Origin: Promethearchaeia archaeon
GTDB lineage: Archaea; Asgardarchaeota; Lokiarchaeia; Sigyniarchaeales; SOKP01
Assembly (NCBI GenBank): GCA_046497275.1
Contig: JAWOFX010000142.1
Location: 4,409 to 36,408, forward strand
DNA: 32,000 nt
Reading direction: 5' to 3'
Shown: piece by piece, positions 7,757-32,000 of the stretch
Layout of the letters: each line of letters starts with the position of its first letter
How positions within the stretch are numbered: the stretch's first letter is position 1
Program-made: the position numbers and the translations under genes
Notes under the pieces: model-generated
Database searches by the model: none
What the model was told of the DNA's origin: nothing
Seen by the model: the letters and a program-made list of their open reading frames with translations, nothing else

Positions 7757-8956
7757 TTAATCATGACTCTTTAATCTCTCCTCAATAAAATTTAATTGCT
7801 GGATCATCCACGATTTAAATTTAATAAAATCTGAGATAGGAGGAATTGAATTATGATTTGACAAATCTTTCTGTTTTTCAGAAAGAACTGAATTGATGTC
7901 TCTATTTTTTAAGGACTCTTGGCTTTTTTGTTTATATTTACTTTCATTATTTATAATTTTATCAATGAAGTTGCTTTGAACTCCGAGTTTGTGTAAAATT
8001 GTTTGGAAATCCGCACGTTCTTTTTCTGAGAGCTCTCCATTCTTATTAAGGGTATCTTTCCATTGAATAAGAAAGTCTTTAGGAAATCCTTCAGACCAGT
8101 GATGCCTTCGCAAGTAATTATAGAGTCTGCTGGGTGTAAATAATTCACTGAGTTCTAAATTACTCGGATTCACATTACTCGTCCGATATTCATCGAGTTG
8201 GGTGATAAAGACTTGAAATAGATGTTTATTCTGTGATTGGATAATGTCAAATTCGTTGGTAAAATCGAGTGCTGTAGTATCTTCTGCCTTAGATTGTAGA
8301 CGGGAACCTTTTATGGAATCACCATCATTTGTATCTTCAGGAAGAATAATGTTATAATAGTTCTCGGTGAATTCAATCACCCGTTCTTGTTCTTGTAGAG
8401 TATATGCACTTGCGATCTCCTCAATATTGAGAGATTCGGGATTTGAATTCATAGCAATATAAATCTTGTTGGCAGTATTTTTAATCTCTTGAAGAGCGTC
8501 TCTGAGCATACTATAATTCTTTGCGAGTGAAAGGATCATCCTTTCCATTGTGAGATCTACATTCTCGAAATCATAATTAAGAAATTTAGTAGATTTTTTA
8601 TTATAAAAGACGAAATTACTATGGGTGGATTCGATAAGATCAGTTGCATTTTGAGTAATGTTAAGGATTGCATGAGCGTTCTCAAGATCTAGAAGCTGTT
8701 TCGCCTTCTTTTTATTAAGATTATAGATGAGGTGATAATTTGGAGTGTGAGAATAGGACTCTGCGTCGCTCCTAATCATCTCTCGGATATTATAAAGAGC
8801 AGTTGCTTCCAAGTCTATAAGGTTGTAGCCGACGGTAAATATCTCTAAGGTTCTTAGATGTTTAAGATCTACATGCGGAAATATTACAATATTTTTTTGT
8901 TTAAAAAAGATCAAATGCAAGAACTCGGGTGTGAGAAAATCATACTCTGTGTCCAT
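7757..8956 (-). CDS. Hypothetical protein (399 aa), alpha/beta N-terminal domain plus helical C-terminal region
   Basis: Long ORF; promoter motif C lies 30 nt upstream of the ATG; no family recognised. Confidence 0.75.
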   Translation of the reverse strand: MDTEYDFLTPEFLHLIFFKQKNIVIFPHVDLKHLRTLEIFTVGYNLIDLEATALYNIREMIRSDAESYSHTPNYHLIYNLNKKKAKQLLDLENAHAILNITQNATDLIESTHSNFVFYNKKSTKFLNYDFENVDLTMERMILSLAKNYSMLRDALQEIKNTANKIYIAMNSNPESLNIEEIASAYTLQEQERVIEFTENYYNIILPEDTNDGDSIKGSRLQSKAEDTTALDFTNEFDIIQSQNKHLFQVFITQLDEYRTSNVNPSNLELSELFTPSRLYNYLRRHHWSEGFPKDFLIQWKDTLNKNGELSEKERADFQTILHKLGVQSNFIDKIINNESKYKQKSQESLKNRDINSVLSEKQKDLSNHNSIPPISDFIKFKSWMIQQLNFIEERLKSHD

Positions 8957-8975
8957 ACTTGATAAAGAGGATAGG

Positions 8976-8992
8976 TATTTAAAAAGAAAAAA
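8976..8992 (-). promoter_or_regulatory. T-rich BRE/TATA motif variant
   Basis: TTTTTTC-TTTTTAAATA; C at 8986, 30 nt from ATG 8956. Confidence 0.65.
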
Positions 8993-9024
8993 GTAAGAGA
9001 AGAATCATAAAAAAACTCTTCACC

Positions 9025-9038
9025 TTTTTCTTTATATA
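9025..9038 (+). promoter_or_regulatory. T-rich BRE/TATA motif
   Basis: TTTTTCTTTATATA; C at 9030, 32 nt before ATG 9062. Confidence 0.6.
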
Positions 9039-9061
9039 TCTAAAAATTACAAAATAGTGCT

Positions 9062-9133
9062 ATGATTTCAAAACAAACTTATATATATAAAAATCAAGTT
9101 CTTACTAACGTTGTCTTTATTTCATTTTTATAG
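9062..9133 (+). CDS. Candidate 23-aa peptide MISKQTYIYKNQVLTNVVFISFL
   Basis: ATG at leaderless spacing from its own motif copy; no other support. Confidence 0.3.
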   Translation: MISKQTYIYKNQVLTNVVFISFL

Positions 9134-9146
9134 TTAAATTTATAAA

Positions 9147-9161
9147 TTTTTTCTTTATATA
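9147..9161 (+). promoter_or_regulatory. T-rich BRE/TATA motif (perfect copy)
   Basis: TTTTTTCTTTATATA upstream of 9230. Confidence 0.7.
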
Positions 9162-9673: not shown

Positions 9674-10327
9674 TTAAGAAAAATTGAACAAATTGAACAG
9701 CACTTGACCCAATAAATCCCGAAAGGTCTCAGCAACATTTTGTCCAGTGAGAGCAATCACGGGATACACAACGAGCGTTCCATCAGCATATTCTTCCTCT
9801 TTTGGAAGTCCTAATTGCTTCTTAAACTCATCAATATTTATCTTAGTCTGAATATCGCGCTTATTGAGTTGGATTATGTAGGGTATGCGTCGAGGGCTTG
9901 CAAAACTCAGCAACTCTCGGAAACTCCTTTTATTCTGCTCTAAAAGTTCTGGCTGAGAATCAGCAACAAACATGATCCCATCGGCACCTTCTAGTACATA
10001 CTCTCTTGTAGAGAGAAAGCGCTCTTGCCCTGTGCAAGTAACTACATGCACGATGATTATATACTCTTGCGTATTAATGGTAGCTTCAAAGGAAAGAAAC
10101 ATAGAATCCTGCCATAGAGTTCTACCGTCTTTAGTTTCAATAGAATAACCTTTAGTGACTCTGTGACTGTCAAATTTTTCTTTAAGACGAAGGAAGTTGG
10201 TGGTTTTGCCCGATTCCCCAGGGCCCCAATAGACGATCTTTAATTGGATCATATTGCCAAGAATCACCCCCCCTGTATTAGTATGGATACTATCATACTC
10301 CGATTCTTCGATTTCATTTCTGAGCAT
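9674..10327 (-). CDS. MglA-like small GTPase (Ras superfamily); alternative in-frame start at 10252
   Basis: LKIVYWGPGESGKTTN (G1), DGRTLW (switch I Arg), TCTGQERF (TxxG as in MglA), QLNKRD (G4). Confidence 0.9.
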   Translation of the reverse strand: MLRNEIEESEYDSIHTNTGGVILGNMIQLKIVYWGPGESGKTTNFLRLKEKFDSHRVTKGYSIETKDGRTLWQDSMFLSFEATINTQEYIIIVHVVTCTGQERFLSTREYVLEGADGIMFVADSQPELLEQNKRSFRELLSFASPRRIPYIIQLNKRDIQTKINIDEFKKQLGLPKEEEYADGTLVVYPVIALTGQNVAETFRDLLGQVLFNLFNFS

Positions 10328-10945: not shown

Positions 10946-10960
10946 TATATAAAGAAAAAA
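10946..10960 (-). promoter_or_regulatory. T-rich BRE/TATA motif (perfect copy)
   Basis: TTTTTTCTTTATATA upstream of the roadblock-GTPase pair. Confidence 0.7.
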
Positions 10961-10986: not shown

Positions 10987-11922
10987 TCAAAACATTTTTA
11001 AGATTGATTTTTTAGTAAAATGAAGTTCTTTTCTCTTATTATAATCATTCTTTTCGATAAAAATACTCTTTAATTTAATAAGCATTCCATTTTCAATGAT
11101 GCGGAGAATCTCGATTGCCTGCATTCCCCATACCAATACATTGATAGCTCCAGTCTCATCGCTTATCATAAATTTCAATAAAAAGGATTTGTCTCCATCT
11201 TCAGAATCAAATTCTTTCAACTCATCTATCTTTACTATGCCTGAGATTTCTTTTACAAATCCATCCTTCTGATACAGATCTCGTATTTTTAATTCTTCCT
11301 GAGCCTCTCTTGAAGAAAACTCATTTTTTCTGGCATTAGATACCTCAATTTTTTGCAATTCCACTTTTATTTTTTTAGGAATATTATCAGGATTTAATTG
11401 TACCTTTCCTTGTTTTGAGAGATGCACTTCTAACCGATCTTTCAATCCTTTCTTACAATAGCAATTTATAACTCTAATAATTGTTCCGATCTTGAAAAAT
11501 TCAGTCTGCATAATCTTGGTATGATCATCCCAAAGCACGATTTTGGTAGTTCCTGAGGTATCTGATATCAAAAACGAACCAACATTACCTGAAGTACCGT
11601 CTTTTCGCATGAATTCATTTATGGGAAAAATACGTTTAATCTTTCCCAACAGAACAATATTTGAAAGATTTTCACGTAGATCCGATATGAGGATTATAAA
11701 TTCATTATAATCAATTTCTTGATTTGCTTCTTCGTAGAGTTCAGGATCGATTTGAGCTGACCGAATCTCGATCCCATTTTCTTTTGCGATGAGGAAAAGA
11801 GCGCCTTGAGGAGTTATAAATCCCTTAAACTCAAGTTCTTTGCGTTTTAGTTCCTCTTTTATCTCTTGTTCTGATAGTCCTGCTTCGGTCAGTTTTTGGT
11901 ATACATCTTGGGCATCACTCAT
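10987..11922 (-). CDS. RPA/SSB-like protein: N-terminal helical domain plus two OB folds
   Basis: FITPQGALFLIAKENGI N-domain; EFMRKDGTSGNVGSFLISDTSGTTKIVLW and KFMISDETGAINVLVW OB folds. Confidence 0.85.
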   Translation of the reverse strand: MSDAQDVYQKLTEAGLSEQEIKEELKRKELEFKGFITPQGALFLIAKENGIEIRSAQIDPELYEEANQEIDYNEFIILISDLRENLSNIVLLGKIKRIFPINEFMRKDGTSGNVGSFLISDTSGTTKIVLWDDHTKIMQTEFFKIGTIIRVINCYCKKGLKDRLEVHLSKQGKVQLNPDNIPKKIKVELQKIEVSNARKNEFSSREAQEELKIRDLYQKDGFVKEISGIVKIDELKEFDSEDGDKSFLLKFMISDETGAINVLVWGMQAIEILRIIENGMLIKLKSIFIEKNDYNKRKELHFTKKSILKMF

Positions 11923-12523
11923 TTTTTTTTAATACACCTTTTTCAATCATTATATTTTTAGTACGATAAAAGGCATAGGCAGAACAATCCATAAGCACTC
12001 GGATATTTTGCATTAACAAATTTTTTGTAGATAAAGGATCGTTCAAATCAGTGAGATAGATAACTATCGCAAGTTGCGTGGATATTCGTGGCCAAAAACT
12101 CGCAATTTGGAAAAATTGCTGAAGAATTTTCAGGTTAGTTTTTGCTCGGGGATAATCGAATACTGGAGCCAATTTATAGACTTTATGTAAATAGATTCTT
12201 ACTTTGGAATAAATACGATTCTGTTTATATCTCCACTGGATATGCGATCTTTTCCAAAATTTTCTAAAGTAATAAAACTGAGCAAAAAATTTTTCTATTA
12301 TGTCCCTAACCAGAAACTCTTGAATATTGGATTCTTCAGAGATTTGACGATAAGTATCATCAGAAAGCATATCTAGCAGAACCGTCTCATCTCCGTCTTT
12401 AGTAATTGGATGACCTCGAAAAAGCGTCTTTAATACTTTCTGCCTAATCTTTCCGAAATATAAAGAGTATTTTAACTCATGGGCAGTTTTTTCCTTAATG
12501 GTTATACTAAATACATTGGTCAT
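11915..12523 (-). CDS. Hypothetical protein with a possible single degenerate TFIIB/cyclin repeat at the C-terminus
   Basis: WPRISTQLAIVIYLT...LMQNIRVLMDCSAYAFYRTK resembles the TFIIB pattern GRSPxSxAAAxIYxA...TQxEIxxxxxVxxxTIR; stop overlaps the RPA start. Confidence 0.6.
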   Translation of the reverse strand: MTNVFSITIKEKTAHELKYSLYFGKIRQKVLKTLFRGHPITKDGDETVLLDMLSDDTYRQISEESNIQEFLVRDIIEKFFAQFYYFRKFWKRSHIQWRYKQNRIYSKVRIYLHKVYKLAPVFDYPRAKTNLKILQQFFQIASFWPRISTQLAIVIYLTDLNDPLSTKNLLMQNIRVLMDCSAYAFYRTKNIMIEKGVLKKNE

Positions 12524-12659: not shown

Positions 12660-13757
12660 TCAAAATATCATATCCAATGTCTTTTGAACGGTGCTAGGAC
12701 GATTCAAATCATACTGAAAAAATCGTAAGCATTCGTAAAAGTTCTCATTAAGTTTTTTTGAATGCTTTTCTACTCGTTCTGGGTTTAAATGATGATCCTT
12801 GCATAATAACTTAAAAATTCTCATTTTATCAGGTGGATTCCAACATAAATAATCAAATGAATCTAATACTTCAGGTAAAAGGAAAATTTTCCGAACTTCT
12901 GAAATAAGATCTCGGTCTAACTTTGAAAAGTCAAATTCATTGTGCTTTTTCGATTTTATTTTCTCGATAGTTTGATATTTTTTAATTAATTTGAGTGCTG
13001 TTTTAGGCCCGATTCCTTTAATACCTTGGAAATAATCAGTCTCAAGCATAAATGCGAGATCAACTAGTTGAAAGCGATCAATTCCTAACAATTCTAAATT
13101 ATGTTGTATATCTATTACCAATGGAACTAAACGAGTATATGTCCATTTATTTTGCACTTTTCTCCTCAGAGATTTTGATAAGTTTTGAATTAGAAATGGG
13201 CACCCAAACAGCAATGAATCAAAATCCTGCGAATTAGAAAAGTTAGCGATACCTTTTTTGACTAAGTGGGCACATTGCGATTCTGCTGAGGCGGGCGATT
13301 CGACTACGGGAACCCCAATCGCATGAAGAAGCTCTTTCGATTCTTTCATGATATTCGGCCATAAGTATTCTTTTGAAAGAGCGATAGTCCTTGCTAATTC
13401 TCTATTTCCGCTATTTATAGCATTTTTATATCGCTTTTGGGTGAACAAAAAATCATTAAGTTGATTTTTAGTAATTTTTCGCTTTAGTGGAGAAACTCTG
13501 CCATCAAAACAAAAAATTGGAAGGATGTTTTTGCTGTAATAAAATTTGATCCTGTAGAGAATTCCGTATAAATGAGAAATGACTCGTTGCGTACGATCAA
13601 GAATTAAATTAGTTTCTGTATTTAATGTTGGATTTTTATGGCTGAAGTTGAGCAATCCCATGATTATGTTCGGTGCATCAACAGAAATTATTTTTCCCTT
13701 TAATTCTTGGAAAGTAATTTTTCTTCGCTGAATAATAGGATCTAATTTGATTCCCAT
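12660..13757 (-). CDS. fen: Divergent flap endonuclease-1 (FEN1) paralog
   Basis: MGIKL, VDA, FDG, SQDFDSLLFG, TDY-GIKGIGPKTA (H3TH), PIP-like QKTLDMIF; several conserved residues are substituted. Confidence 0.9.
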   Translation of the reverse strand: MGIKLDPIIQRRKITFQELKGKIISVDAPNIIMGLLNFSHKNPTLNTETNLILDRTQRVISHLYGILYRIKFYYSKNILPIFCFDGRVSPLKRKITKNQLNDFLFTQKRYKNAINSGNRELARTIALSKEYLWPNIMKESKELLHAIGVPVVESPASAESQCAHLVKKGIANFSNSQDFDSLLFGCPFLIQNLSKSLRRKVQNKWTYTRLVPLVIDIQHNLELLGIDRFQLVDLAFMLETDYFQGIKGIGPKTALKLIKKYQTIEKIKSKKHNEFDFSKLDRDLISEVRKIFLLPEVLDSFDYLCWNPPDKMRIFKLLCKDHHLNPERVEKHSKKLNENFYECLRFFQYDLNRPSTVQKTLDMIF

Positions 13758-13777: not shown

Positions 13778-13793
13778 AAATAAAAAGAAAAAA
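13778..13793 (-). promoter_or_regulatory. T-rich BRE/TATA motif variant
   Basis: TTTTTTCTTTTTATTT; C at 13787, 30 nt from ATG 13757. Confidence 0.6.
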
Positions 13794-13982: not shown

Positions 13983-14038
13983 AAGTCAAAATGTTGTATC
14001 TTTATATTAATAAAATATTCTATAATGAGGGAACATTA

Positions 14039-14401
14039 ATGGGAGAAGATATAGTGTTTTATGATGAACCTGGCAGGAGTAAAAAATATGTAAAAATCAT
14101 ATTTATTGGGATCTTAGCATTTATTGCAATCTATTTTCCACTTTTCGGAAATAATCTGCGGTATCAGATCGGAGGGATGCTTGATACACTCTTTAATTTT
14201 ATTGGGATTATCTGCTTGTTCTTAGGGGGAATAAATATTGCCATCGGATTTTTAGGACTAGTTGCAAAAAAATTCTATTTGGGAAATGTGGTCATAGGGG
14301 CACTCTTACTGTGGATAGGATGTTGGCTTACAGGGATTGTGATAAATTTATTCGGAGTAATTTTTGGCGGCTCCGAAGTTTCTAATCCTGGATATCATTA
14401 A
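14039..14401 (+). CDS. Small integral membrane protein (120 aa, about 3 TM helices); start revised to ATG 14039
   Basis: GAGGGA 6 nt before the ATG; Gly-rich hydrophobic helices. The track ATG at 13991 is too close to the promoter motif. Confidence 0.75.
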   Translation: MGEDIVFYDEPGRSKKYVKIIFIGILAFIAIYFPLFGNNLRYQIGGMLDTLFNFIGIICLFLGGINIAIGFLGLVAKKFYLGNVVIGALLLWIGCWLTGIVINLFGVIFGGSEVSNPGYH

Positions 14402-14480: not shown

Positions 14481-14705
14481 TTAAACACCTATTCGAAAAT
14501 ATCTCATCCCTGTTTGGAGTCCACAAACTGCAATTAAGAGTATAGAAATGCCTAACACAAAGTACATACTACTCCTTTTATAACGTGGAAGGGTCATCAT
14601 TCCGAGTACTCCGATGATAAGCCCTAGCACCCCCATGATCGAGCCGAAAGCGATCAAAAACTCTATTGCTTCTCCAATCATATCAAAATAGTTATTATAA
14701 ATCAT
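14481..14705 (-). CDS. Small two-helix membrane protein, possibly VirB2/TrbC/CedA1-type pilin-like
   Basis: 74 aa, two hydrophobic segments separated by a basic loop (PRYKRS). Confidence 0.65.
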   Translation of the reverse strand: MIYNNYFDMIGEAIEFLIAFGSIMGVLGLIIGVLGMMTLPRYKRSSMYFVLGISILLIAVCGLQTGMRYFRIGV

Positions 14706-14795: not shown

Positions 14796-14840
14796 GCCAA
14801 ACATATTCACTTCATTAAATATAGTTATTTGAAAAAAAAT

Positions 14841-15179
14841 ATGCGACAAATTGAAGAAATAGGGATCTGTCCTAATTGCGACTGCTCGTTAATGATTTAT
14901 AAGACTTCAAACTATAAGCGGTTTGTTAAGTGCGAAATTTGTGGCCATTCCTACCCTCTTCCCAAACGAGGGCATATTGATAATTCAGCACTTATATGTC
15001 CCTTGCGAGGGTATCCTATTTTAATTGTTCAAAAACGAGACAGTAAAGCATATTTCTGGACAGATAGACCATGTTTTAGCTGCGTCCATATGGGCACATG
15101 CGAGCCTGTCAAGCAATTAGAAGAAGAATTTACTGAATTGGGAGTGTATGGATATGATCAAGCAGGGCAAAACACATAA
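14841..15179 (+). CDS. Stand-alone topoisomerase IA C4 zinc-ribbon-like protein
   Basis: GICPNCDCSL...KRFVKCEICGHSYPLP...ICPLRGYPIL...CFSC resembles the archaeal TopA C-terminal tail; start may be TTG 14829. Confidence 0.75.
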   Translation: MRQIEEIGICPNCDCSLMIYKTSNYKRFVKCEICGHSYPLPKRGHIDNSALICPLRGYPILIVQKRDSKAYFWTDRPCFSCVHMGTCEPVKQLEEEFTELGVYGYDQAGQNT

Positions 15180-16161
15180 ACACAATCTCCCTATTATCAT
15201 TAGCATTTTGTGTATACTAAGTTTATGCTATCTCCTATCACTTCCTCAGCACGATCCCAATTCACCTGTAATAAAAGGATCTGACTTTCTTTCTGATGAT
15301 GATCTTTTAATTGATAAAGTCTATACATTTCATTCTGGCTCCCCAAGTTTAATTATCACTAATCTTACCTTTGAGAGAGAATTCACCTATAATATTAAGA
15401 TGGCAGTGGTGACTGATGAGCACGAGTGCCATATGGAAGTGAATTTATTTGATCCAGAGGGTGATCTCTACGAACTGTTTAGTTCGCAGGAGCCAATGAC
15501 ATATGATGAGTATTTTGACATCCCTTTTGGTGCGGCACTCAGCGGAGTCTATAATCTCAATTTCACGAAATTGGATGGTCCTAATCTGAATATCCATATT
15601 ATCATTCGGAAGGGAGAATTATGTTTTCGGGAATTTGTGTCAGGAGATGCGAATCATGTCTATGAAATACGGAAATTTGCTCGGATTCCTTCCGGTAAAT
15701 CATATCGTCCCTATTATTATTTTAAAGATCAATGGTGCTATCACATCTATCTCTGCAGAGTCTCTCCCATCAGCGCAAATCGGTCAAACCAAATAAATTT
15801 AGACCATAATGTGGTGGATCCTTCCGTAGAGGGAATTTCTTTTCCCATCTATACTAATCATTCATTGGGACAGATTTGGGACCCACGCAACTATGAATTT
15901 GGCACGGCAATGGCGGGTGAATATCTGTTAAATTTTACTTTTTATCAAGATCCCGAGTTTATTAATGTGATGTTTTTGATAACCGATGAAGGACGATTAG
16001 CAGCGGGAGAAGATGCAGGCTCTATCAACGAAACTACTGCTCCAACACCTATTATGTGGGTTCCTCTGGAAGCGCAAGTAGGGATATCTCTAGGAGTAGG
16101 AGCATTAGTATTAGTAGGTCTTATAATTATGATCTATACCAAACGACACTCTAATATTTAA
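15148..16161 (+). CDS. Membrane-anchored surface protein with two tandem beta-sandwich repeats
   Basis: N- and C-terminal TM helices; internal repeat DPEG...FGAALSGVYNLNF / DPSVEG...FGTAMAGEYLLNF; start may be 15154. Confidence 0.75.
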   Translation: MDMIKQGKTHKHNLPIIISILCILSLCYLLSLPQHDPNSPVIKGSDFLSDDDLLIDKVYTFHSGSPSLIITNLTFEREFTYNIKMAVVTDEHECHMEVNLFDPEGDLYELFSSQEPMTYDEYFDIPFGAALSGVYNLNFTKLDGPNLNIHIIIRKGELCFREFVSGDANHVYEIRKFARIPSGKSYRPYYYFKDQWCYHIYLCRVSPISANRSNQINLDHNVVDPSVEGISFPIYTNHSLGQIWDPRNYEFGTAMAGEYLLNFTFYQDPEFINVMFLITDEGRLAAGEDAGSINETTAPTPIMWVPLEAQVGISLGVGALVLVGLIIMIYTKRHSNI

Positions 16162-17489: not shown

Positions 17490-17498
17490 TGTGTTTTA

Positions 17499-17542: not shown

Positions 17543-17557
17543 TATATAAAGAAAAAA
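17543..17557 (-). promoter_or_regulatory. T-rich BRE/TATA motif (perfect copy)
   Basis: TTTTTTCTTTATATA upstream of radA. Confidence 0.7.
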
Positions 17558-18063: not shown

Positions 18064-18077
18064 TATTTAAAGAAAAA
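18064..18077 (-). promoter_or_regulatory. T-rich BRE/TATA motif
   Basis: TTTTTCTTTAAATA; C at 18072, 30 nt from ATG 18042. Confidence 0.7.
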
Positions 18078-19185: not shown

Positions 19186-19187
19186 AC

Positions 19188-19946: not shown

Positions 19947-19961
19947 TATATAAAGAAAAAA
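19947..19961 (-). promoter_or_regulatory. T-rich BRE/TATA motif (perfect copy)
   Basis: TTTTTTCTTTATATA; C at 19955, 30 nt from ATG 19925. Confidence 0.75.
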
Positions 19962-24800: not shown

Positions 24801-25058
24801 ATGATCCAAACAGGAAATTATTCATTTGAACTTTATCTTGATGATGGATTGAATCCAAGCCAGAATCTGATCTACGAATATTTTACCTCCTATGGAAATG
24901 AACCACAAGATCCAACCGATCCACAACCCAATGGAACAAATGAACCTCAAATTCCACTAATTCTTTTCTATCCTATCATACTCCTCCCCTTATTTGGATC
25001 CTCTGGAGCAATTGCATTTACATTTCTGAAGAAAAAGCAACTGAAAACTCTAAAATAA
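21816..25058 (+). CDS. Large membrane-anchored surface protein with prenyltransferase/squalene-cyclase-like alpha-toroid repeats and two Ig-like repeats
   Basis: Signal peptide; repeats STYFAL, TYYAV, SFYAL, SFYAI, TYYAS; duplicated GNYSFELYxxDGLN; PQD linker; C-terminal TM plus basic tail. Confidence 0.75.
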   Translation: MTKPKFSRKPLLIITVLVCCFLISSLNFKPKREQINGEFRENIHPSGDMNNYDFISTVMDDLTNIYGEYGYFPTYYEPSIQSTYFALQSYLSLGRISDLNETEIISFLIDHYDTEQGYFIDDYAIRYLDTDFEAFYLPLNTLLEVNCYALLSLKILNRLDLINNQSFIDFIWSCFNSDEGAFIGQPYDVDLHPKFKIPTLDNTYYAVKILDLLLDTWDEYYPQRSQLITFIEDCQTFITKEAQYGGFKNDLVSGFSSLRITDPNMLSSFYALETLNTFNALEAINIDAFNQFLKDLYNIENFFFELSWFPDLPTHGRPFATSIGLSLSLLTGYNEINEMGIVNYLKSIRNNIGVWKSSINDLQFELIDTFQVLRSLYDSRHINDFTNGEKDAIADGLEHFKSYQSYCNTPTDYMSISALSSIAKSFKIFNRETDLEIQELFVYLRDAYISDPENEPRSFYGYTNMDAKYLFFRIYPIEYYNLGTYSSLEYIDYLFNHKFVYQALTALKDLYKLDDFDTFYALNELLDQTVLAQIINPNSDKFGAFLPNSLLLNFDQDLQDKTVFLEQSFYAIRTMELLRDYLELGSLEELLLDSEALKVYIFNTFEAPGSYCYSMPRATSDVNIILKNTYYASYIMKSLDSFTQDTQKIKNYIMDHLDYNDIENIYYSYLLDQLLELDIEFPIESVQALIQELYCEDLNCFYLTTEKNKINQQILYWICDMAKNDKYRYNINFDDVILLDSYSMITVEIQNLILNSIGQYGSLKFESDQLGEYAFTEFGEGVFRCNVFVPFDVSNYPTIEGNISRYEFSTKQEVIPISFNTTYELFSEINFLENANTINIEINCSLNIASGSRNLPDGESFMHIYHEGEYIATDSLSYQQNGDYTKYFLEYEYTQFGNYSFELYVNDGLNESDHFIGKIMTQHSYQLISEVSISRINTTINFIINASMMVEGSEIQPFSYGSAFLKIYREGTYIQQKNFIGEDRDTYTHFETTYMMIQTGNYSFELYLDDGLNPSQNLIYEYFTSYGNEPQDPTDPQPNGTNEPQIPLILFYPIILLPLFGSSGAIAFTFLKKKQLKTLK

Positions 25059-25084: not shown

Positions 25085-25099
25085 TTTTTTCTTTTTATG
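25085..25099 (+). promoter_or_regulatory. T-rich BRE/TATA motif variant
   Basis: TTTTTTCTTTTTATG; implies the start is ATG 25130 rather than 25097. Confidence 0.45.
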
Positions 25100-25129
25100 C
25101 AACTTCATTCTAATCTAATAGAGAATATT

Positions 25130-25786
25130 ATGAATTATTCTGACTTTTTAGATAAGGATGAAAAAGAGTACTCCAAAGATCTGAATACAAGATCTACCAC
25201 CCAAAAATCAACGATATATGAGACCATCCACACTATTCTCAAAATTCTTAACATTTTTCATGGTAATTATGACAAGAAGCTTAACCTCGAAAAATTATTT
25301 AATAAGATTAGTATTCCTGTCCAAGAGAGAGAAGATTATCTCAGACTTATTCTGGAATTTCAAGCCCTCTTTCATACTACTTTCTACACTCATTCGCTTG
25401 AAGTAAAAGAAATCAATTCAACTATGTATCTTGTCTGTAGACATTTTAAAAATGCCTTACAAAATAATCCAAAAAAAAGTCAGGACCCTAAACAAATCAC
25501 AATCTCATCTCGCGATCTCTCTTTATTAAATGATATTGTCTATATGTTTACTAATATTAAGCGTGGGAGGGGGTTTGATCTCAAAGAAGACTCTTCAGAA
25601 ATCGTAAAAGGAATAAAAAGATTACGAAAAAATCACCCTTACATTTTTTTTTCGAATGGTCATGGATATATATATCCTACAGAGTTTGGTGTCAAATTAG
25701 GGCAAAAAACTAATACTTATTTAAAATGTAATCGCCCTATTGACACATTTATTATCGAGGATTGTACAATTACAATTGAGGAATAA
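25130..25786 (+). CDS. Hypothetical protein, possible C-terminal winged helix
   Basis: KRLRKNHPYIF...YIYPTEFGVKLG resembles a wing motif; the ORF track starts at 25097. Confidence 0.7.
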   Translation: MNYSDFLDKDEKEYSKDLNTRSTTQKSTIYETIHTILKILNIFHGNYDKKLNLEKLFNKISIPVQEREDYLRLILEFQALFHTTFYTHSLEVKEINSTMYLVCRHFKNALQNNPKKSQDPKQITISSRDLSLLNDIVYMFTNIKRGRGFDLKEDSSEIVKGIKRLRKNHPYIFFSNGHGYIYPTEFGVKLGQKTNTYLKCNRPIDTFIIEDCTITIEE

Positions 25787-25805
25787 GGATGAGCGAATGT
25801 ATTGA

Positions 25806-25820
25806 TTTTTTCTTTTAATA
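25806..25820 (+). promoter_or_regulatory. T-rich BRE/TATA motif variant
   Basis: TTTTTTCTTTTAATA upstream of hef. Confidence 0.6.
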
Positions 25821-25865
25821 TATATGTTTTATAGTTTCACTACTCTTAATAGGATATGATTGTTA

Positions 25866-28022
25866 ATGAGTCATTCCCAAGAAAATATGTTGCCATTGCA
25901 AATAAAAAGTACTTATCTTCACGAGGATAAGATAGAACCTCGGAAGTATCAAGTCGATATTGCCTTACAATGCATAGCAAAAAACTCGCTGGTGGTCATT
26001 CCTACAGGGCTTGGAAAAACAATCATCGCCATCTTAGTTGCTGCTAAAACTTTAGAGATATCTCCACCAAGTAGTAAAGTAATTATAATGGCTCCCACTC
26101 GACCATTAATTAACCAACATTACGAAACATTCCTTCAATTTTTTACAATACCAGAAGATCAATATGCTATTTTGACGGGAAAAATTTCTCCTGACGATCG
26201 TCCTAAAGAGTTTCGATCCCATAAAATGCTATTTTTTACTCCGCAAACGTTACGGAATGATTTAGTGTCTGGCAATTATTTGTTAGATAATACAAGTTTA
26301 CTAATCTTTGATGAGGCACATCACGCTTCTGGGGATTATCCCTATACGATGATTGCAGATCTGTATGAAACGCAAAACCCAGATGGGACCATCTTAGGAT
26401 TAACTGCCTCTCCGGGATCTTCTCAACAAGCGATAAATGATCTCTGTCTAAATCTCCATATTCCTTCCAACAATATCCATATTCGTAAACGCAAAGATGT
26501 CGATGTCAAAGGATACATAAAACCGATGGATATTTATAAGATCGGAGTAAATTTGACCTCACTTATGGAAGATGTAAGAAAAGTATTATATATGATCTTA
26601 GAAGAGCGACTTCGGTATCTTTCCCAATTAGGATTTTTAAAGGTCCACACAGACAAATTATATGAAAAAATCATTCGAAAAGATCTTCTAGAATTGAATC
26701 GAAAGTTACTGGCAATCATTCAAGGGGATGGAGAAAAGACGGGAGCCTATAAATCCTTATCTATCAACGCTCAAGGACTCATTTTGTATCATATGTTGGA
26801 ATTAGTGGAACAGCAAGGCTTAGATGTATTGCTCAAGTATTTGGAAAAACTCCAGAAAGATGCTCATAAGAAAAATAGTTCTAAAGCAAATCGAATTTTA
26901 GCAACAGATCCCCGAATTCGAAGAATTGATTTAGAACTGCGAAAACACTATGAATTTGAGCCTAACAGCTTATTGCATCCGAAACTGAAAGTATTGAAAA
27001 GTGTGCTTTCTGATGAATTTAGTAAAAACCCAGAATCAAAAATATTAGTATTTGTAAAGCTTCGAGCTTCCGTAAAAAATATCGTAAAAAAATTAGAATC
27101 TTCTCAAACTATACGACCTGTACGATTTGTAGGACAAGCAACAAAATCTGACGATGATAAGGGACTTTCCCAAAAAAAGCAAATCGAGATTTTGGATAAA
27201 TTCAAGCAAGGAATCTTTAATGTATTAGTGAGTACCAATGTGGGAGAGGAAGGCTTGGATATTGCCGAATGCGATTTAGTGATCTTTTATGATGTGGTCG
27301 CCTCTGAAATTCGTCTTATTCAAAGAAAGGGACGAACAGCGCGTCATCGTGAAGGAAGAGTGATCATTCTCTACTGTCGCAATACGAATGATGAAGTCTA
27401 TTTACAGATTGCGATGAATAAGTTAAAACGTATGCAGAGAAATCTGCAAAATCCGCAAACGAAGAAAAAGAGTGAATTTTCTCGTTTTACCGTTAAAAAA
27501 GGATCTGAATTAGAAAAGGAAGTGAAAGGAAGAACCCAAAAGAAGCAATTTAATTTGGTTGATTTTGTCAATACACAAGAACAAGAAAATCATACAAAGG
27601 TATTGGAACAGGAAAAAGAGGGAGATATCATTTTAAATTCTAATTTGGATATGAAATATGGGTTGCGAAAAAATCTTAACGCGGCAAGTATCGAATTTTT
27701 AGTAAAACAGTCTGAATATTCCCTCGTGGTATTTGAGAAGATTCTCATCCAGATTATAGATCCTCGTGAGAGCAATAAATCTGAACTTTTAAAGTTCTAT
27801 GAAGAATGGAAAACAAAATTTGAGTTAGTGGTTCTGGTGATTGATTTTATAGAGTTTAAAGAAACATTCCTTGATGAAAATCGACTTTTAAAGCAAAAAT
27901 TTGTAGATTTTGGAAAGAACAAAAACATCCAAATAGTTACCATTGATACACTTGAGGAATTATTTTTCCTTGTAAAAAATGTCTTCGACTATAATACTCA
28001 AAGATCAGAGAGGGAGATGTGA
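25866..28022 (+). CDS. hef: Hef/FANCM/Mph1-family SF2 helicase with degenerate ERCC4 nuclease-like C-terminal domain
   Basis: EPRKYQ, PTGLGKT, DEAHHA, TAS, STNVGEEGLDI, IQRKGRTAR; start ATG 25866 or TTG 25860. Confidence 0.9.
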   Translation: MSHSQENMLPLQIKSTYLHEDKIEPRKYQVDIALQCIAKNSLVVIPTGLGKTIIAILVAAKTLEISPPSSKVIIMAPTRPLINQHYETFLQFFTIPEDQYAILTGKISPDDRPKEFRSHKMLFFTPQTLRNDLVSGNYLLDNTSLLIFDEAHHASGDYPYTMIADLYETQNPDGTILGLTASPGSSQQAINDLCLNLHIPSNNIHIRKRKDVDVKGYIKPMDIYKIGVNLTSLMEDVRKVLYMILEERLRYLSQLGFLKVHTDKLYEKIIRKDLLELNRKLLAIIQGDGEKTGAYKSLSINAQGLILYHMLELVEQQGLDVLLKYLEKLQKDAHKKNSSKANRILATDPRIRRIDLELRKHYEFEPNSLLHPKLKVLKSVLSDEFSKNPESKILVFVKLRASVKNIVKKLESSQTIRPVRFVGQATKSDDDKGLSQKKQIEILDKFKQGIFNVLVSTNVGEEGLDIAECDLVIFYDVVASEIRLIQRKGRTARHREGRVIILYCRNTNDEVYLQIAMNKLKRMQRNLQNPQTKKKSEFSRFTVKKGSELEKEVKGRTQKKQFNLVDFVNTQEQENHTKVLEQEKEGDIILNSNLDMKYGLRKNLNAASIEFLVKQSEYSLVVFEKILIQIIDPRESNKSELLKFYEEWKTKFELVVLVIDFIEFKETFLDENRLLKQKFVDFGKNKNIQIVTIDTLEELFFLVKNVFDYNTQRSEREM

Positions 28023-28025
28023 AGA

Positions 28026-28529
28026 ATGGAAGATGATGAAACTGGGATTACAAAGGATGAAAAACCGTATTTAATTTTTCGTTGTAGCAAGTGTGAGCAG
28101 TATATGTATGTCAAACCCACTCAAAAACAGAAAAAATGTCTCAGGTGTGGTAGGACGCACACTGTTGCTAAATTAGATGTCGTAGATGAAGTAAAAGGGA
28201 TGACTACAGCGGTGAATCGAGTAAAAGAATTACAAAATACATTAGGGGGAGAGCCAAACCTAAGAGGATCAGGTGAATTCTCTGTTGCTTTGTCTAATGC
28301 TGGTGTAAACAAGATCAAAAATATTATGAATGAATCTGAACTAGAGATCCAATTCTATGATCTTTTACACAATTTAGCACAACAATATACAAAGTTTCCG
28401 TATTATATGATTGAATTAATGGCCCAAGAAAGTCAGTTTGACTTAAATGAAGTACAATTATTCTTAAGAAAATTCATAAAAGAAGGCGTTTTACGGCAAC
28501 TAGATCACAATTATTATACTCTGTTATAA
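28026..28529 (+). CDS. Zinc-ribbon (DUF1922-like) protein with probable C-terminal winged helix
   Basis: FRCSKCEQYMYV...KKCLRCG; C-terminal VQLFLRKFIKEGVLRQLDHNYY; GAGGGAG upstream; 3 nt after the hef stop. Confidence 0.7.
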   Translation: MEDDETGITKDEKPYLIFRCSKCEQYMYVKPTQKQKKCLRCGRTHTVAKLDVVDEVKGMTTAVNRVKELQNTLGGEPNLRGSGEFSVALSNAGVNKIKNIMNESELEIQFYDLLHNLAQQYTKFPYYMIELMAQESQFDLNEVQLFLRKFIKEGVLRQLDHNYYTLL

Positions 28530-29014: not shown

Positions 29015-29043
29015 TTCTTCAAATCTTTGAAATTACATTTAAT

Positions 29044-29319
29044 TTACTCTTGAGTGATACTATCCAGATATAATTTCATGAAATACCGCTGGCTTTTACA
29101 ATAATCTCGCCGTTGTGCGTCTGTAATGGAATGAGAATTCAATAGTATATTCAATTTTTTGAGGATTTCTAGATATTCTTGGGTAGATTTCTGCGGTTCT
29201 CGTTTAATTTCAACTTTTAACTTTTGGTTCCTTGTATTCGGATTTTGGGGATGGATCTGAGGGATAATAAATGATAATTTCCTCTCTTTTTCTTTTTCAG
29301 AATCAGAATCTAATTCCAT
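29044..29319 (-). CDS. Small hypothetical protein (91 aa)
   Basis: ORF with a motif copy 39 nt upstream. Confidence 0.65.
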   Translation of the reverse strand: MELDSDSEKEKERKLSFIIPQIHPQNPNTRNQKLKVEIKREPQKSTQEYLEILKKLNILLNSHSITDAQRRDYCKSQRYFMKLYLDSITQE

Positions 29320-29349
29320 CGCAGATCTACAAAATAATAAGAGTGAGAA

Positions 29350-29364
29350 AATATAAAGAAAAAA
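29350..29364 (-). promoter_or_regulatory. T-rich BRE/TATA motif
   Basis: TTTTTTCTTTATATT; C at 29358. Confidence 0.65.
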
Positions 29365-29373
29365 TCACACAAC

Positions 29374-31929
29374 TTATGCCTTTTTCTTTAAAGCATATTT
29401 TTTGGCACTCTCTACAATAGTTTTACATAATTTCACGCCTAATCCTGTTTTCCTATTCAATCGGTAGGGCGACTCTTTCGCAACTTGAGAGGAAGTATGA
29501 TACCCCGCATCATAGAGAATCCGTGCCCTCACCCGTGCTACATTCTCTAATCTGACTACCAAGTCAAATAATTCTTCACGGATTCCGTAATGAATACGAA
29601 TACGCAAAGTTTCTGCCATCTCGGCAATTGTCACCATATCATTATGAATATCCTTTCCCGAGGAACTTAGATGAGTAGCAATAATCCCTACAAATGTGAT
29701 AATTCGTTCCAAATTCTCTTTGACAGACATTAGGTCTCCTGCCATAATATGATACCTTTCCAAAATATCGTTAATCGCCTCCTCATCTGCCCATTCGATT
29801 ATCGGATCTAAAAGTTTGTAATCCCTTACTCTCCCTTCTGAAATTAGAATATCATAAGACTCTCTCAATAAGTCTTGGTAGGATGAGATTTCACGATTTT
29901 CCAGTTTGCTTCTGATTAGTACACCTGAAACGGGATATAAATATAATCGAATAATTAATTTTCCAAATTGAGAACAAATGATTTTATTCTCCTCATCTTC
30001 TTTTAAGATTAACCCTTTTTCAAACAAATAATTGAGTATATACTGATTTTTAATGGATTTGGGAATAATATCCTTTACTGCTCTTTGAATATTTTTATCG
30101 GGAAATTGTATTAAGTAGACAAGAAAAGCGGTGATATGACCGCAGAATTCAAAGGCAAAAGTATTATTTACGAAATTATCGGAAATACCATTCTCAAACC
30201 CACACGAGCACCGAATACCGTTATCCAAATCAAACTCACAGAAAAACACTCCGTACGTAGTTTTAATATACCCAGAAATATTTGAGGAGGTAAGTTTCGA
30301 AATCTTTATTTGATAGTCACTTTCCTTGGCTTTTTTAACTTTTTTGGGATCTGCATGAAGTTTTAAAATGTTTAAGGGGGTGATCTCTTTAATCATCAAC
30401 AACTCTTCGATCGGAATAGGGGATTTCATTTTATGCGTAATGACATACCAGAAATAGGTCTTCTTAAAAAAACGTGTTAATTCCTCAAGCGTAATGGTCT
30501 TTTCTTCATAGACTCGTAATAAGACTTGTTCTTTAAGGGTATTGACGGTGTTAAGGCCAGAGTCTAAATCTTCATACTGAGGAATGAGTTTATCATTCAG
30601 AAAATCGATTGAGAAATAATGATCTTCTATCCATGCTTTTTCCTCTAAATTATTGACAAGTAAGACTCCATAGCCGACGGTATCTAACCCAGGGCGCCCA
30701 GCTCGTCCTAACATCTGGAAGGTTTCATTGGCAGAAAAGGGGAGGAAATATGAAAATCCATCCCCATTCTCAAAAAAACCCTTAAAATTCTTGATATTAT
30801 ACCCAGAGGTTACATAGCGCTTAAAATCTTTGAGGATGACTACTCGTGCAGGCATATTAATTCCCGCAGATAATGTAGTAGTACAGCAAATCACCTTAAT
30901 AATTCGCTTTCGATAATGCTCTTCTACTAATCTTCGTTCTTTGGGAAGCAAGCCTGCATGATGAAAGGCGATCCCATGCTTTATTACTTTTTGCAGATCA
31001 TTATGCCCTCCCCGGACTGATCGTAACTTTTTTTCGATGGATTTACATGTGTCTTTTTCCTTCTCGTCAAGAAACTTAGTAATGGTAGAATATAGACTAT
31101 TTGCCATCTTTTGCGTTGCTTTTCTGGTATTAAGAAAAATTAAAACTTGCCCATTTTTCTCCAAAATATTATTGAGAATTTTTTTAATGGTTGCATTTTT
31201 GTTTTGGGATACTTCAATCTTATAATGTAAGGGTACGGGACGAGAGTTTGATTTAATGAGAGTTGTATTATTGCCTAACTTATTAAGCCAAGAGTTAAAA
31301 AATTCGGGATTGCGAATCGTTGCAGAGAGTCCAATAATCTGGGGAGTGTGTAAAAATTCATTCATCCGTACGATTAATGATTCAAGACGTGGTCCTCTGG
31401 AACTTTCTCCAATGAAATGGATTTCATCAATAATCACGGTGGCAATCTCAAATATCCATTCTTTATCGTAGAAATTGCGAATAATAGAATCCATTTTCTC
31501 ATAGGTGGTAATGATAATATCTGCCGTGGCAAGTTTTTTATCATCCACATCGAAATCTCCGATAGAAAGCTCTACGTCTATGTGGAAACGAGTATAGGCC
31601 TTTTTAAAATGATAATATTTTTCAGTAGCAAGTGCTTTAAATGGGACTAAATAGATAGATTTCCCGTACTTCTGAAAAATATTATGGACGGCGCAAATCT
31701 CTCCTACCAAGGTTTTCCCACTACCTGAGGGAGCACAAATTAAAAATGATTTTCGGAAAAAAAGTCCTTTCTTGATTGCTAGTTTTTGGATCCCTCTCAG
31801 TTCGAAAATATTATGTTCAAACAGAACTCGCAAGATTCGTTTATCAGGTATTAATTTAAAGATTTCTTTATCACGATAGTCATCAAGATCATTCTGCTTA
31901 TTTTGGTCAGTATATTCATCAATTGTAAT
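29374..31929 (-). CDS. Hel308/Ski2-like SF2 helicase paralog with inserted SWIM zinc finger; probable ATT start at 31929 (851 aa; track TTG 31833)
   Basis: LRGIQ, APSGSGKT, DEIH, SAT, FHHAGL, QMLGRAGRPG, C-terminal RVRARILYDAGY; CSC...FCGHITA. The frame is open 32 codons upstream to ATT, 6 nt after AGGTGA. Confidence 0.88.
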   Translation of the reverse strand: MTIDEYTDQNKQNDLDDYRDKEIFKLIPDKRILRVLFEHNIFELRGIQKLAIKKGLFFRKSFLICAPSGSGKTLVGEICAVHNIFQKYGKSIYLVPFKALATEKYYHFKKAYTRFHIDVELSIGDFDVDDKKLATADIIITTYEKMDSIIRNFYDKEWIFEIATVIIDEIHFIGESSRGPRLESLIVRMNEFLHTPQIIGLSATIRNPEFFNSWLNKLGNNTTLIKSNSRPVPLHYKIEVSQNKNATIKKILNNILEKNGQVLIFLNTRKATQKMANSLYSTITKFLDEKEKDTCKSIEKKLRSVRGGHNDLQKVIKHGIAFHHAGLLPKERRLVEEHYRKRIIKVICCTTTLSAGINMPARVVILKDFKRYVTSGYNIKNFKGFFENGDGFSYFLPFSANETFQMLGRAGRPGLDTVGYGVLLVNNLEEKAWIEDHYFSIDFLNDKLIPQYEDLDSGLNTVNTLKEQVLLRVYEEKTITLEELTRFFKKTYFWYVITHKMKSPIPIEELLMIKEITPLNILKLHADPKKVKKAKESDYQIKISKLTSSNISGYIKTTYGVFFCEFDLDNGIRCSCGFENGISDNFVNNTFAFEFCGHITAFLVYLIQFPDKNIQRAVKDIIPKSIKNQYILNYLFEKGLILKEDEENKIICSQFGKLIIRLYLYPVSGVLIRSKLENREISSYQDLLRESYDILISEGRVRDYKLLDPIIEWADEEAINDILERYHIMAGDLMSVKENLERIITFVGIIATHLSSSGKDIHNDMVTIAEMAETLRIRIHYGIREELFDLVVRLENVARVRARILYDAGYHTSSQVAKESPYRLNRKTGLGVKLCKTIVESAKKYALKKKA

Positions 31930-31935
31930 GTTCTA

Positions 31936-32000
31936 TCACCTAAGTATAAAAAATTCCTTTAATATGGATTTGACCATTTTTTCAAAAGCTCTTGAAATGT
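31936..32000 (-). CDS. C-terminal end of an upstream gene (partial)
   Basis: ...ISRAFEKMVKSILKEFFILR-stop; the stop TGA lies inside the SD of the helicase gene. Confidence 0.55.
   Translation of the reverse strand, partial: ISRAFEKMVKSILKEFFILR

Follow-up and report, generated by a model that had tools for sequence, protein, structure and literature searches.

A 32,000-nucleotide stretch of an Asgard (Loki-type) archaeal genome covers about two thirds of a conserved gene island, 36-40 kb overall, in which a second, divergent set of recombination enzymes lies together with predicted membrane and surface proteins, a small GTPase with a Roadblock-like neighbour, and a divergent relative of the transcription factor TFB. 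The stretch, hereafter the window, runs from position 4409 to 36408 of contig C13 in a genome of 3.85 Mb and 188 contigs (G000); a window coordinate equals the C13 coordinate minus 4408. Our preferred reading, held tentatively and at a little less than even confidence, is that the island is a regulon switched by the TFB paralog, in which envelope or DNA-transfer functions are coupled to specialised recombination. By analogy with known systems, its most likely function would be inducible, contact-dependent transfer or uptake of DNA, coupled to recombination of that DNA. Genes were called from a listing of open reading frames (ORFs) together with Pfam and NCBIfam scans, while membrane and surface calls are hydropathy predictions. 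With these scans, each gene class that the original prediction had named between window positions 7757 and 32000 was found where it had been placed. No published description of this gene cluster was found in the literature searched.

The recombination and repair genes of the window had been proposed to be additional and divergent paralogs, and this proved to be the case. Using tblastn and Pfam across the whole genome, we located canonical radA, radB, fen, rpa, hef and hel308 genes elsewhere, so that all six repair families have housekeeping copies outside the island, 25-41% identical to the window copies. There are two canonical RadA genes (on C56 and C46), 41% identical to the window RadA, and a RadB gene on C69. 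The canonical FEN1 (C156) and RPA (C34) are each 32% identical to their window counterparts, and the canonical Hel308 (C169) is 31% identical. A Hef with its nuclease is encoded on C156 (41% identical to the window Hef), and another helicase of the Hef type on C59. When the window copies were scored against the NCBI equivalog cut-offs, only RadA came out above.

The window RadA matches Rad51 at 2e-71 over profile positions 7-243 of 244, carries the Walker A sequence GPFKSGKT, and scores 329 bits against the NCBIfam RadA model PRK04301 (cut-off 259). Over its whole length, the 408-aa frame can be aligned with yeast Rad51 (225 bits), Dmc1 (217 bits) and Pyrococcus RadA (216 bits). These alignments begin at residues 4-7 and cover the N-terminal helix-hairpin-helix (HhH) domain that distinguishes such proteins from RadB; the window gene is therefore a complete Rad51-type recombinase and not a RadB. 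To judge from the frame, translation must begin before the first ATG at 17408. The N-terminal domain is encoded at 17408-17495(-), with either a non-canonical start or a mis-started frame, and orthologs of 400-415 aa have ordinary starts. The protein departs from the canonical two-domain layout by an extra HHH_5 domain after the ATPase core (residues 324-374 of the 379-aa form), and HHH_5 is among the Pfam domains of 120/120 RadA orthologs among the matches listed. In public data, the island RadA is represented by at least 120 distinct 90%-identity clusters (68-96% identity), all annotated just as RadA.

The other enzymes are more divergent from their family models. The FEN1 paralog scores 270 bits against fen_arch (cut-off 352), and its orthologs are 54-70% identical; judged from these comparisons it is a family member, but the housekeeping ortholog is the copy on C156. 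On another small contig, C159:740-955 encodes about 80 aa with 56% identity to the island FEN1, which could represent a further partial copy or a variant of the assembly. The RPA-like protein reaches 98 bits against the NCBIfam replication factor A models, for which the cut-off is 362. The window Hef scores 567 bits against the NCBIfam Hef model (cut-off 610) and covers positions 5-595 of 781. Because the match ends at position 595, the protein is without the ERCC4 nuclease domain; ERCC4 nuclease (PF02732) was found in this genome on C156 and C71 only. The window Hel308 scores 414 bits against Hel308-type models, over residues 1-465 only (cut-off 887), with weak matches to Helicase_dom4_arc (1e-5) and HHH_5 (2e-3), and its CxC-x19-CxH finger is kept in 30/30 orthologs.

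The cluster and its promoter motif are conserved, being syntenic across at least eight genera of one family. A near-complete gene set surrounds the TFB-like homologs of seven genomes (G006, G020, G007, G016, G004, G005 and G012), and in an eighth (G232) the island is divided between two loci 170 kb apart with its genes and motif kept. TFB-like homologs (E 1e-48 or better, 31-48% identity) occur in about 19 of 24 sampled family genomes, often in several copies. Across genera, RadA is 62-80% identical, Hel308 57-74%, FEN1 54-70% and Hef 52-60%, compared with only 25-48% among the TFB-like, surface and small proteins. In a phylum-wide sample, 45 of 68 family genomes have the Roadblock-like gene at no less than 55% identity and three of seven genomes of a sister family have it at 42-49%, and elsewhere the gene has only remote relatives (23-33%). 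The island RadA was found in about 45 of 70 family genomes and the island Hel308 in 45 of 70. The marker genes co-occur: RadA and the Roadblock-like gene agree in 42 of 50 comparable genomes, with both present in 31, both absent from 11, and eight discordant cases, several of which are fragments. All 70 family genomes also encode two canonical RadA proteins, with frames of about 420-440 aa and about 335 aa (66% mutual identity in G000), which agrees with the two Asgard RadA clades that have been reported (PMC12722695).

A shared motif, TTTTTTCTTTAWATA, precedes most transcription units of the island, as the original prediction had described, and its copies point to gene starts. The window holds 15 copies between positions 8979 and 29363, which end 20-60 nt before most starts. 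At least 12 island transcription units are preceded by the motif, and few genes elsewhere. A loose 13-mer form occurs 164 times in the genome and 16 times on the 36-kb contig, a 10-fold enrichment. For the strict form, 11 of the 28 genomic copies fall within the 35.9-kb island, against 0.16 expected (Poisson P 4e-17), and the enrichment P values range from 8e-16 to 4e-17. The TFB-like gene, Hel308 and the RPA operon are without an exact copy. The motif places TTTTTTC at the position of the B recognition element (BRE), just upstream of a TTTAWATA box; because generic upstream regions of this genome are A-rich, a T-rich element at that position is unusual. It is kept before orthologous genes in G006, G007, G016, G020, G004, G005, G012 and G232, in which the surrounding intergenic sequence has diverged. 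Outside the island, the genes behind a motif copy include, at C71:29020-32037, those for a stand-alone 250-aa ERCC4 nuclease (29020-29772) and a 683-aa zinc-finger protein, and this nuclease could supply the activity absent from the nuclease-less Hef.

The gene in the middle of the island encodes a protein with a Zn_Ribbon_TF match (2e-4). With a profile built from 11 orthologs, the first cyclin repeat of Pyrococcus TFB (1d3u_B/1ais_B) is hit at E 5e-5, and the E values run from 5e-5 to 5e-4 over the first cyclin repeats of TFB and human TFIIB. The second repeat, the B-reader and the B-linker were not detected in it. It scores 19 bits against NCBIfam TFIIB (cut-off 384), and Pfam TFIIB finds nine other TFB genes in G000 and not this one. 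On these matches, the island gene appears to be a very divergent tenth TFB paralog. The nine canonical genes (on C34, C1, C136, C31, C47, C178, C51, C124 and C44) have two TFIIB repeats each and form an unusually large family. The T-rich-BRE motif co-occurs with the TFB-like gene in every island examined. From this co-occurrence we infer that the TFB-like protein reads the motif, and it is our candidate for the master regulator of the island.

The end at position 32000 given in the original prediction is merely the end of the contig, and the cluster carries on over C42 and C158. A 1297-aa gene is divided between the ends of these two contigs, with an overlap at residues 489-551, and the island order in G000 is therefore C13 - C42(rev) - C158(rev), about 36 kb in all (35.9 kb). 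Eleven island proteins are predicted from hydropathy to be membrane or surface proteins. In the relatives, Hel308 is followed by a tightly coupled four-gene membrane operon (534-690, about 247, about 309 and about 1297 aa) and then by further genes; in G000 the operon lies on C42 and C158. Apart from ThiF, the operon and tail proteins on these contigs have no Pfam, PHROG or padloc match. The tail (C158:22713-27006) encodes a ThiF/E1-like enzyme, a protein with eight transmembrane helices (8-TM), and basic proteins of 387 and 417 aa. The last two show GNAT-like motifs by eye, and Pfam sees ThiF alone in that tail.

A HerA/VirB4/CedB-type protein had been proposed as something to look for in the flanks, and a protein of the HerA/VirB4/VirD4 fold is indeed encoded just past the end of the window, within the conserved island. 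It is the 1297-aa product of the membrane operon, which has 4-5 N-terminal membrane helices by hydropathy. Sequence-level searches with Pfam, PHROGs, padloc and a PDB profile failed to detect its HerA-like domain, which a fold search alone revealed. We modelled the soluble domain with seven orthologs (core pLDDT 70-90). The Foldseek matches include Sulfolobus HerA (E 1e-10), and the VIA-align Z scores are 25.6 for DndH-C, 23.3 for VirB4, 22.6 for HerA and 22.5 for TrwB. A 5-TM protein of the same operon (C42:2498-3202, minus strand; AF2 pLDDT 82) resembles claudin/TARP-like tetraspans with an extracellular beta-sheet (E 5e-4 to 1e-2). Both models come from shallow alignments of 7-8 sequences. 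The claudin/TARP-like tetraspan fold is best known from animal cell-junction proteins.

The original prediction was of an inducible module for processing incoming or partner DNA. The extra paralogs, the synteny, the co-occurrence, the HerA/VirB4 fold and the mid-island TFB-like gene all favour this, but the transport part of the idea fared less well, as the Walker A lysine is absent and the fold of the 5-TM protein matched no VirB6. In the TFB-switched regulon as we picture it, the TFB/TFIIB paralog would direct RNA polymerase to a promoter variant with TTTTTTC in place of the A-rich stretch. Once the island is switched on, an envelope apparatus and a recombination set would be made together. 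The former would comprise the giant acidic surface protein, the type-I surface protein, small hairpins and the four-gene membrane operon with its claudin-like tetraspan and HerA/VirB4/VirD4-fold protein. The latter would comprise the RPA-like and FEN1-like proteins, the Rad51-type protein with the extra HhH domain, the RadB-like protein, the nuclease-less Hef, and the Hel308 with its SWIM-like finger. The GTPase/Roadblock switch would accompany these recombination proteins. This picture is built on direct observations of gene content, paralogy, motif enrichment, conservation, co-occurrence, a VirB4/HerA-like fold and largely genus-congruent inheritance. Co-induction of the island genes is suggested by the promoter sequences, and the passage of DNA across the envelope by analogy with known systems.

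The closest functional analogue of the island would be the response of Sulfolobales in which TFB3 activates the Ups pili and the Ced importer after DNA damage (PMC6101594, PMC6101591; see also PMC9905601, PMC11868833). The Ced and Ted systems are built from VirB4, VirB6 and VirB2 derivatives of a type IV secretion system (T4SS), and Ted loci also hold Rad50 and HerA genes (PMC9905601). As in the TFB3-Ups-Ced response, an extra TFB paralog is tied to membrane/DNA-exchange genes and to homologous recombination, and a membrane-bound protein of the VirB4/HerA superfamily occurs with small two-helix membrane proteins and a common promoter element. However, TFB3 is truncated, whereas the island factor is of full size, extended at its C terminus, and much more divergent. 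The Ced and Ups genes are scattered and the normal RadA is used, whereas the island is a single unit with its own RadA, RPA, FEN1, Hef and Hel308. The ATPase motifs of CedB are intact, whereas the island P-loop is degenerate, and no type IV pilus genes were found in the island. The island also differs from Ced and Ted in having a GTPase/Roadblock switch, and any pilin or channel in it is putative. The Ted loci of Thermoproteales (TedA/B/C with Rad50, HerA and ParA; PMC9905601) likewise cluster a T4SS-derived membrane ATPase homolog with repair genes. Yet the island proteins have no sequence similarity to Ted proteins, their partners are RadA, Hef, Hel308 and FEN1 in place of Rad50 and HerA, and the island comes with a transcription factor of its own and a GTPase/Roadblock pair.

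Several observations weigh against a TFB-switched regulon for DNA transfer. In the 1297-aa protein, I-T-N-G-[ST]-x-x-x-R-E replaces the P-loop GxxGxGK[ST] in 7/7 orthologs, with loss of the Walker A lysine, and the Walker B is degenerate (IIPNxD, 7/7 orthologs). The protein thus has the fold that was sought, but, on the modelled domain, probably without canonical ATPase chemistry, and no further membrane motor ATPase was found in the island. The 5-TM protein was considered as a VirB6/CedA counterpart and rejected, as Foldseek against PDB and AFDB gave claudin/TARP/MARVEL-type tetraspans. The pilin likeness of the proteins encoded at 14481-14705 and 13991-14401 is a matter of hydropathy only. 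Co-regulation is suggested by the motif, yet when a loose 14-mer form was counted in five genomes without the island and five with it, background made up most of the counts and the two groups could not be told apart. The island is absent from about a third of the family genomes, including some that are 98-100% complete, and is found at differing chromosomal sites. Finally, imperfect direct repeats some 180 nt long flank the island of G006; they align with a score of 121, against 37 for the best of 20 shuffles.

The last of these points bears on an alternative, absent from the original prediction, that we regard as possible but doubtful, namely that the island arose by integration of a mobile element, which would be conjugative-like or derived from a plasmid and may have been domesticated. 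In such an element, the TFB-like protein and the motif would serve private transcription, the VirB4/VirD4-like operon and the surface proteins would serve transfer, and RadA, RPA, FEN1, Hef and Hel308 would serve the element's own recombination-dependent replication or its integration through homologous recombination. G006 belongs to the same genus as G000 and is assembled in 10 contigs; its complete 39.8-kb island (C11:84344-124194) lies between orthologs of C41:984-2099 and C41:2464-2829. Since these two genes are adjacent in G000, C41:2099-2464 represents an empty site. Each of the G006 repeats holds the first codons and the promoter of the left flanking gene. A dispensable, relocating island with a direct-repeat-flanked insertion opposite an empty site makes the mobile element a serious rival. 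The patchy within-genus distribution also speaks for it, as do the additional island copies or additional TFB-plus-surface-protein pairs in some genomes, the many genes without a known family, and a promoter unlike that of the host. T4-like phages hold an analogous set for recombination-dependent replication (UvsX, gp32, RNase H and UvsW/Dda), which also counts for this alternative. Furthermore, archaeal conjugative elements without recognisable relaxases or pilins are known (PMC9905601).

Against a mobile element stands, first, the gene content: with Pfam, PHROGs and NCBIfam, no integrase, transposase, relaxase, replication initiator, polymerase, primase, capsid or terminase was detected among the island genes, at least 10 of whose proteins are without an assignable fold. 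At the presumed ends of the G000 island, a direct repeat was found at chance level only (score 34, shuffles up to 48). A tree of the Hel308 paralogs from 30 genomes follows the genera, requiring the minimum of eight genus changes with the possible exception of G004 grouping with G020, and therefore indicates long vertical residence. The enzymes are strongly constrained, with RadA at 62-80% identity across genera, about the level of flanking housekeeping genes, and the divided island of G232 has retained its genes and motif. The neighbourhood of the flanking aldehyde:ferredoxin oxidoreductase (AFOR) gene differs in each of four congeners, in keeping with a heavily rearranged host chromosome, and variable location alone is therefore weak evidence of mobility. 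Altogether, the island reads as old, mostly vertically inherited, dispensable and relocatable; it may have had a mobile origin, or be transferred occasionally through homologous recombination.

Comparison with known elements gives a mixed outcome as well. Like archaeal integrative conjugative elements (ICEs) and conjugative plasmids (pNOB8/pING; thaumarchaeal elements, PMC6563490), the island spans tens of kb, has direct repeats with an empty site, encodes a VirB4/VirD4-fold membrane protein and many proteins without a family, and is patchy in occurrence. Unlike them, it is without a detected integrase, intact VirB4/TraG ATPase motifs or replication genes, its phylogeny follows genera, and it has a complete Rad51-type tool-kit and a basal transcription factor, which are not reported for those elements. 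Nor does the island look like the Asgard mobile elements of PMC11529989. With T4-like phages, the island shares a recombinase, a single-stranded DNA (ssDNA)-binding protein, a FEN-type nuclease and helicases in one possibly mobile unit. It differs from them in having no detected polymerase, primase, capsid or packaging genes, in the archaeal/eukaryotic type of its proteins, and in its near absence from IMG/VR, in which no TFB-like relative and one RadA at 40% were found; the IMG/VR result also counts against the mobile element in general. A viral origin was rejected on the same search and on a PHROGs scan of 20 island proteins, which gave no structural or packaging match.

It is also conceivable, although we think it unlikely, that TFB-switched expression serves the cell internally, as a regulon for DNA damage or replication stress: the TFB-like protein would turn on back-up fork repair and the membrane genes would remodel the envelope or arrest division, with no intercellular DNA involved. 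Archaea process stalled forks and carry out recombination with Hef, Hel308, RadA, RadB, FEN1 and RPA, which fits this account. The same is true of a HerA/VirB4-like protein without canonical ATPase motifs, of a tetraspan protein that is not VirB6-like, and of the motif in front of the stand-alone ERCC4 nuclease at C71:29020-29772. However, about a third of the island codes for membrane or surface proteins, among them the fast-evolving giant surface protein encoded beside the TFB-like gene in most examined loci, and an intracellular repair response does not readily account for these. In addition, many complete genomes do without the island, and the HerA-superfamily domain is anchored in the membrane by 4-5 helices.

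A more far-reaching version of that regulon would be a mating-like programme. Surface and junction proteins would join cells, a VirB4-derived scaffold and helicases would pass DNA, and the island RadA, as the closest archaeal relative of Rad51/DMC1, would recombine it, so that the division into general and sexual recombination machineries would have a forerunner in prokaryotes. We consider this quite improbable. The original prediction had drawn a parallel with meiosis, of which the duplication of the same families was borne out: like the eukaryotic meiosis set (Dmc1, Mer3/HFM1, FANCM, MEIOB, SWS1), the island is a specialised set, probably under separate regulation, of a Rad51-type recombinase, Ski2/Hel308-type and Hef/FANCM helicases, an RPA-like OB protein and a SWIM-like finger. 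The parallel with that set stays an analogy, short of orthology. The island RadA itself forms a distinct clade: in an exhaustive search of 1.8 billion representatives, its members scored 431-650 bits and everything else 228 bits or less, and trees of 98 sequences gave the clade a support of 100/100 on a stem of length 1.27. Two trees place it as sister to a clade with fungal and nematode Rad51 and plant DMC1, and not to the canonical RadAs of the host. In a quick LG+G4 tree, a clade of island RadA, eukaryotic sequences and three unnamed sequences received 95% SH-aLRT. Under LG+C20+F+G4, the pairing of island and eukaryotic sequences is weak (62/78), and joining the island clade to the RadAs of the host is not rejected in an approximately unbiased (AU) test (delta lnL 13.8, p 0.37). 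The position beside Rad51/DMC1 is therefore weakly supported by the sequences and vulnerable to long-branch attraction. Published trees separate eukaryotic Rad51/DMC1 from all Asgard RadA, with highly divergent sequences among those removed (PMC12722695).

Finally, an anti-virus or anti-plasmid defence island, with a Hachiman-like Hel308/HamB helicase and a HerA-type module, is very improbable: the Hel308 paralog does match padloc HamB (E 1.6e-45), the Foldseek top matches of the 1297-aa domain include SIR2-HerA, DUF4297-HerA and DndH complexes, and the occurrence is patchy and island-like, but Hel308 models outscore HamB by 414 to 153 bits (HamB is itself a Hel308 relative, and Hel308 ancestry accounts for the HamB-like matches), Pfam finds no HamA/DUF1837, SIR2, DUF4297, Dnd or other effector among the neighbours, the other nine proteins scanned have no meaningful padloc match, and the Rad51-type recombinase, RPA, FEN1, TFB-like factor and GTPase/Roadblock pair belong to no known defence system.

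The coordinates of the window features are collected in the table. The GTPase is 61-75% identical in orthologous islands and has five paralogs elsewhere in G000 at 29-35%. It had been paired in the original prediction with a Roadblock protein as an MglA/Roadblock couple; the GTPase half is well founded (Arf, Ras), while the Roadblock half is a lead, drawn from Robl_LC7 clusters in the Atlas (0.91) for a protein without a Pfam or PDB sequence match. This Roadblock-like protein is the most conserved island protein without a family (60-79% identity). The protease described as M50B-like has as its support a weak DUF3267 zincin match alone (3e-4). Its gene, the 2-TM gene and the RadB-like gene overlap one another in an order kept in six genomes. 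The 1080-aa surface protein, which adjoins the TFB-like gene in most examined loci, has a net charge of -80 and a predicted membrane helix at both ends, and its orthologs are 31-41% identical. The 337-aa surface protein is fast-evolving (25-41% identity) and has no family match. The small membrane protein at 13991-14401 is kept in G006, G007, G016 and G232. Orthologs of the Zn-ribbon protein at 14829-15179 are 52-69% identical and those of the 91-aa ORF 38-62%, and a near-copy of the motif lies upstream of the 75-aa ORF. No family match was found for the 202-aa basic protein in the Pfam, PHROGs and NCBIfam scans. At 25097-25786, the motif copy 25086-25098(+) overlaps the called ATG and the alignment with orthologs begins only at about residue 14-44; translation probably starts further downstream.

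At the island edge, the 399-aa protein has no match in PDB, PHROG, padloc or the Atlas. It was considered as an integrase, but gave no PDB profile match, and its Atlas model is poor (pTM 0.18) and without a meaningful neighbour. The G000 island adjoins an arginine-catabolism cluster; window positions 1-6293, outside the island, hold a catabolic cluster with FAD oxidoreductases and an aldehyde:ferredoxin oxidoreductase. In G007, the neighbourhood of the island includes an ortholog of C13:1876-2778, a gene that precedes the window on its contig.

Table. Features of the island within the window (window coordinates; motif, TTTTTTCTTTAWATA)
Feature	Position	Strand	Evidence and remarks
399-aa acidic protein	7757-8956	-	Edge gene in G000, G006 and G020; weak POLQ_helical match; orthologs 43-52%
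Motif copy before the 399-aa gene	8979-8991	-	
Ras-superfamily small GTPase	9674-10327	-	Walker A GPGESGKT; Arf 3e-10, Ras 2e-6
Roadblock/LC7-like protein, 182 aa	10346-10894	-	True start ATG 10894; motif 10947-10959(-)
RPA-like ssDNA-binding protein, two OB folds	10987-11922	-	CDC24_OB3 2e-10, tRNA_anti-codon 3e-8
202-aa basic protein	11915-12523	-	Frame overlaps the RPA-like gene; pairing kept in 4 other genomes
FEN1/XPG-family 5'-flap nuclease paralog	12660-13757	-	XPG_I 4e-19, XPG_N 2e-5; motif 13780-13792(-)
Small protein, several predicted membrane helices	13991-14401	+	Motif 13969(+), 22 nt before ATG
74-aa two-helix membrane hairpin	14481-14705	-	Hydropathy; pilin-like by layout only; orthologs 42-51%
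Cys-rich Zn-ribbon protein	14829-15179	+	Zn_ribbon_Top1 E 1e-3 (weak); three CxxC pairs; motif 14782(+)
337-aa type-I surface protein	15148-16161	+	N-terminal signal/anchor and C-terminal anchor (hydropathy)
RadA/Rad51-type recombinase (third in genome)	16269-17495	-	First ATG 17408; motif 17544-17556(-)
122-aa protein, two CxxC pairs	17674-18042	-	Paralog on C33 at 46%; motif 18065-18077(-)
RadB/KaiC-like P-loop ATPase	18107-18826	-	RadB 1e-9; Walker A GKAGTGKT
2-TM protein	18823-19194	-	Hydropathy
5-TM zincin-like protein	19188-19925	-	DUF3267 3e-4; motif 19948-19960(-)
Divergent TFB/TFIIB-like protein	20394-21653	+	Zn ribbon, cyclin repeat and C-terminal extension
1080-aa acidic surface protein	21816-25058	+	Signal, alpha/alpha-toroid (Prenyltrans 6e-15), C-terminal anchor; motif 21752(+)
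229-aa protein, Hef operon	25097-25786	+	Motif 25086(+)
Hef-type helicase without nuclease domain	25860-28022	+	DEAD, Helicase_C, RNA_helicase_helical; motif 25807(+)
DUF1922 zinc-ribbon protein, Hef operon (25097-28529)	28026-28529	+	DUF1922 3e-12
Two small conserved ORFs, 75 and 91 aa	28749-29319	-	Motif 29351-29363(-)
Hel308/Ski2-type helicase paralog	29374-31833	-	CxC-x19-CxH SWIM-like finger, residues 542-566
Motif copies, first base	8991, 10959, 13792, 17556, 18077, 19960, 29363	-	
Motif copies, first base	9025, 9148, 13969, 14782, 21752, 25086, 25807, 28542	+	

If the island is a TFB-switched regulon of this kind, the closest archaeal relatives of eukaryotes would keep two recombination machineries, one for housekeeping and one separately switched under a private basal transcription factor, the second being packaged with cell-surface and DNA-transfer-like genes. 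The TFB-like protein and its motif would give Asgard archaea their first candidate for a sigma-like pairing of TFB and promoter whose regulon is defined, to which a HerA/VirB4 derivative with a remodelled nucleotide site would be added. If the island is instead a mobile element, it would be an archaeal element of a kind that we did not find described, one that combines a TFB-like factor of its own and a full set of Rad51-type tools with the lack of an integrase. Should the regulon reading be true, Asgard cultures or metatranscriptomes would offer a direct test of how specialised, meiotic-type recombination paralogs originated and how regulated genetic exchange arose before eukaryotes.

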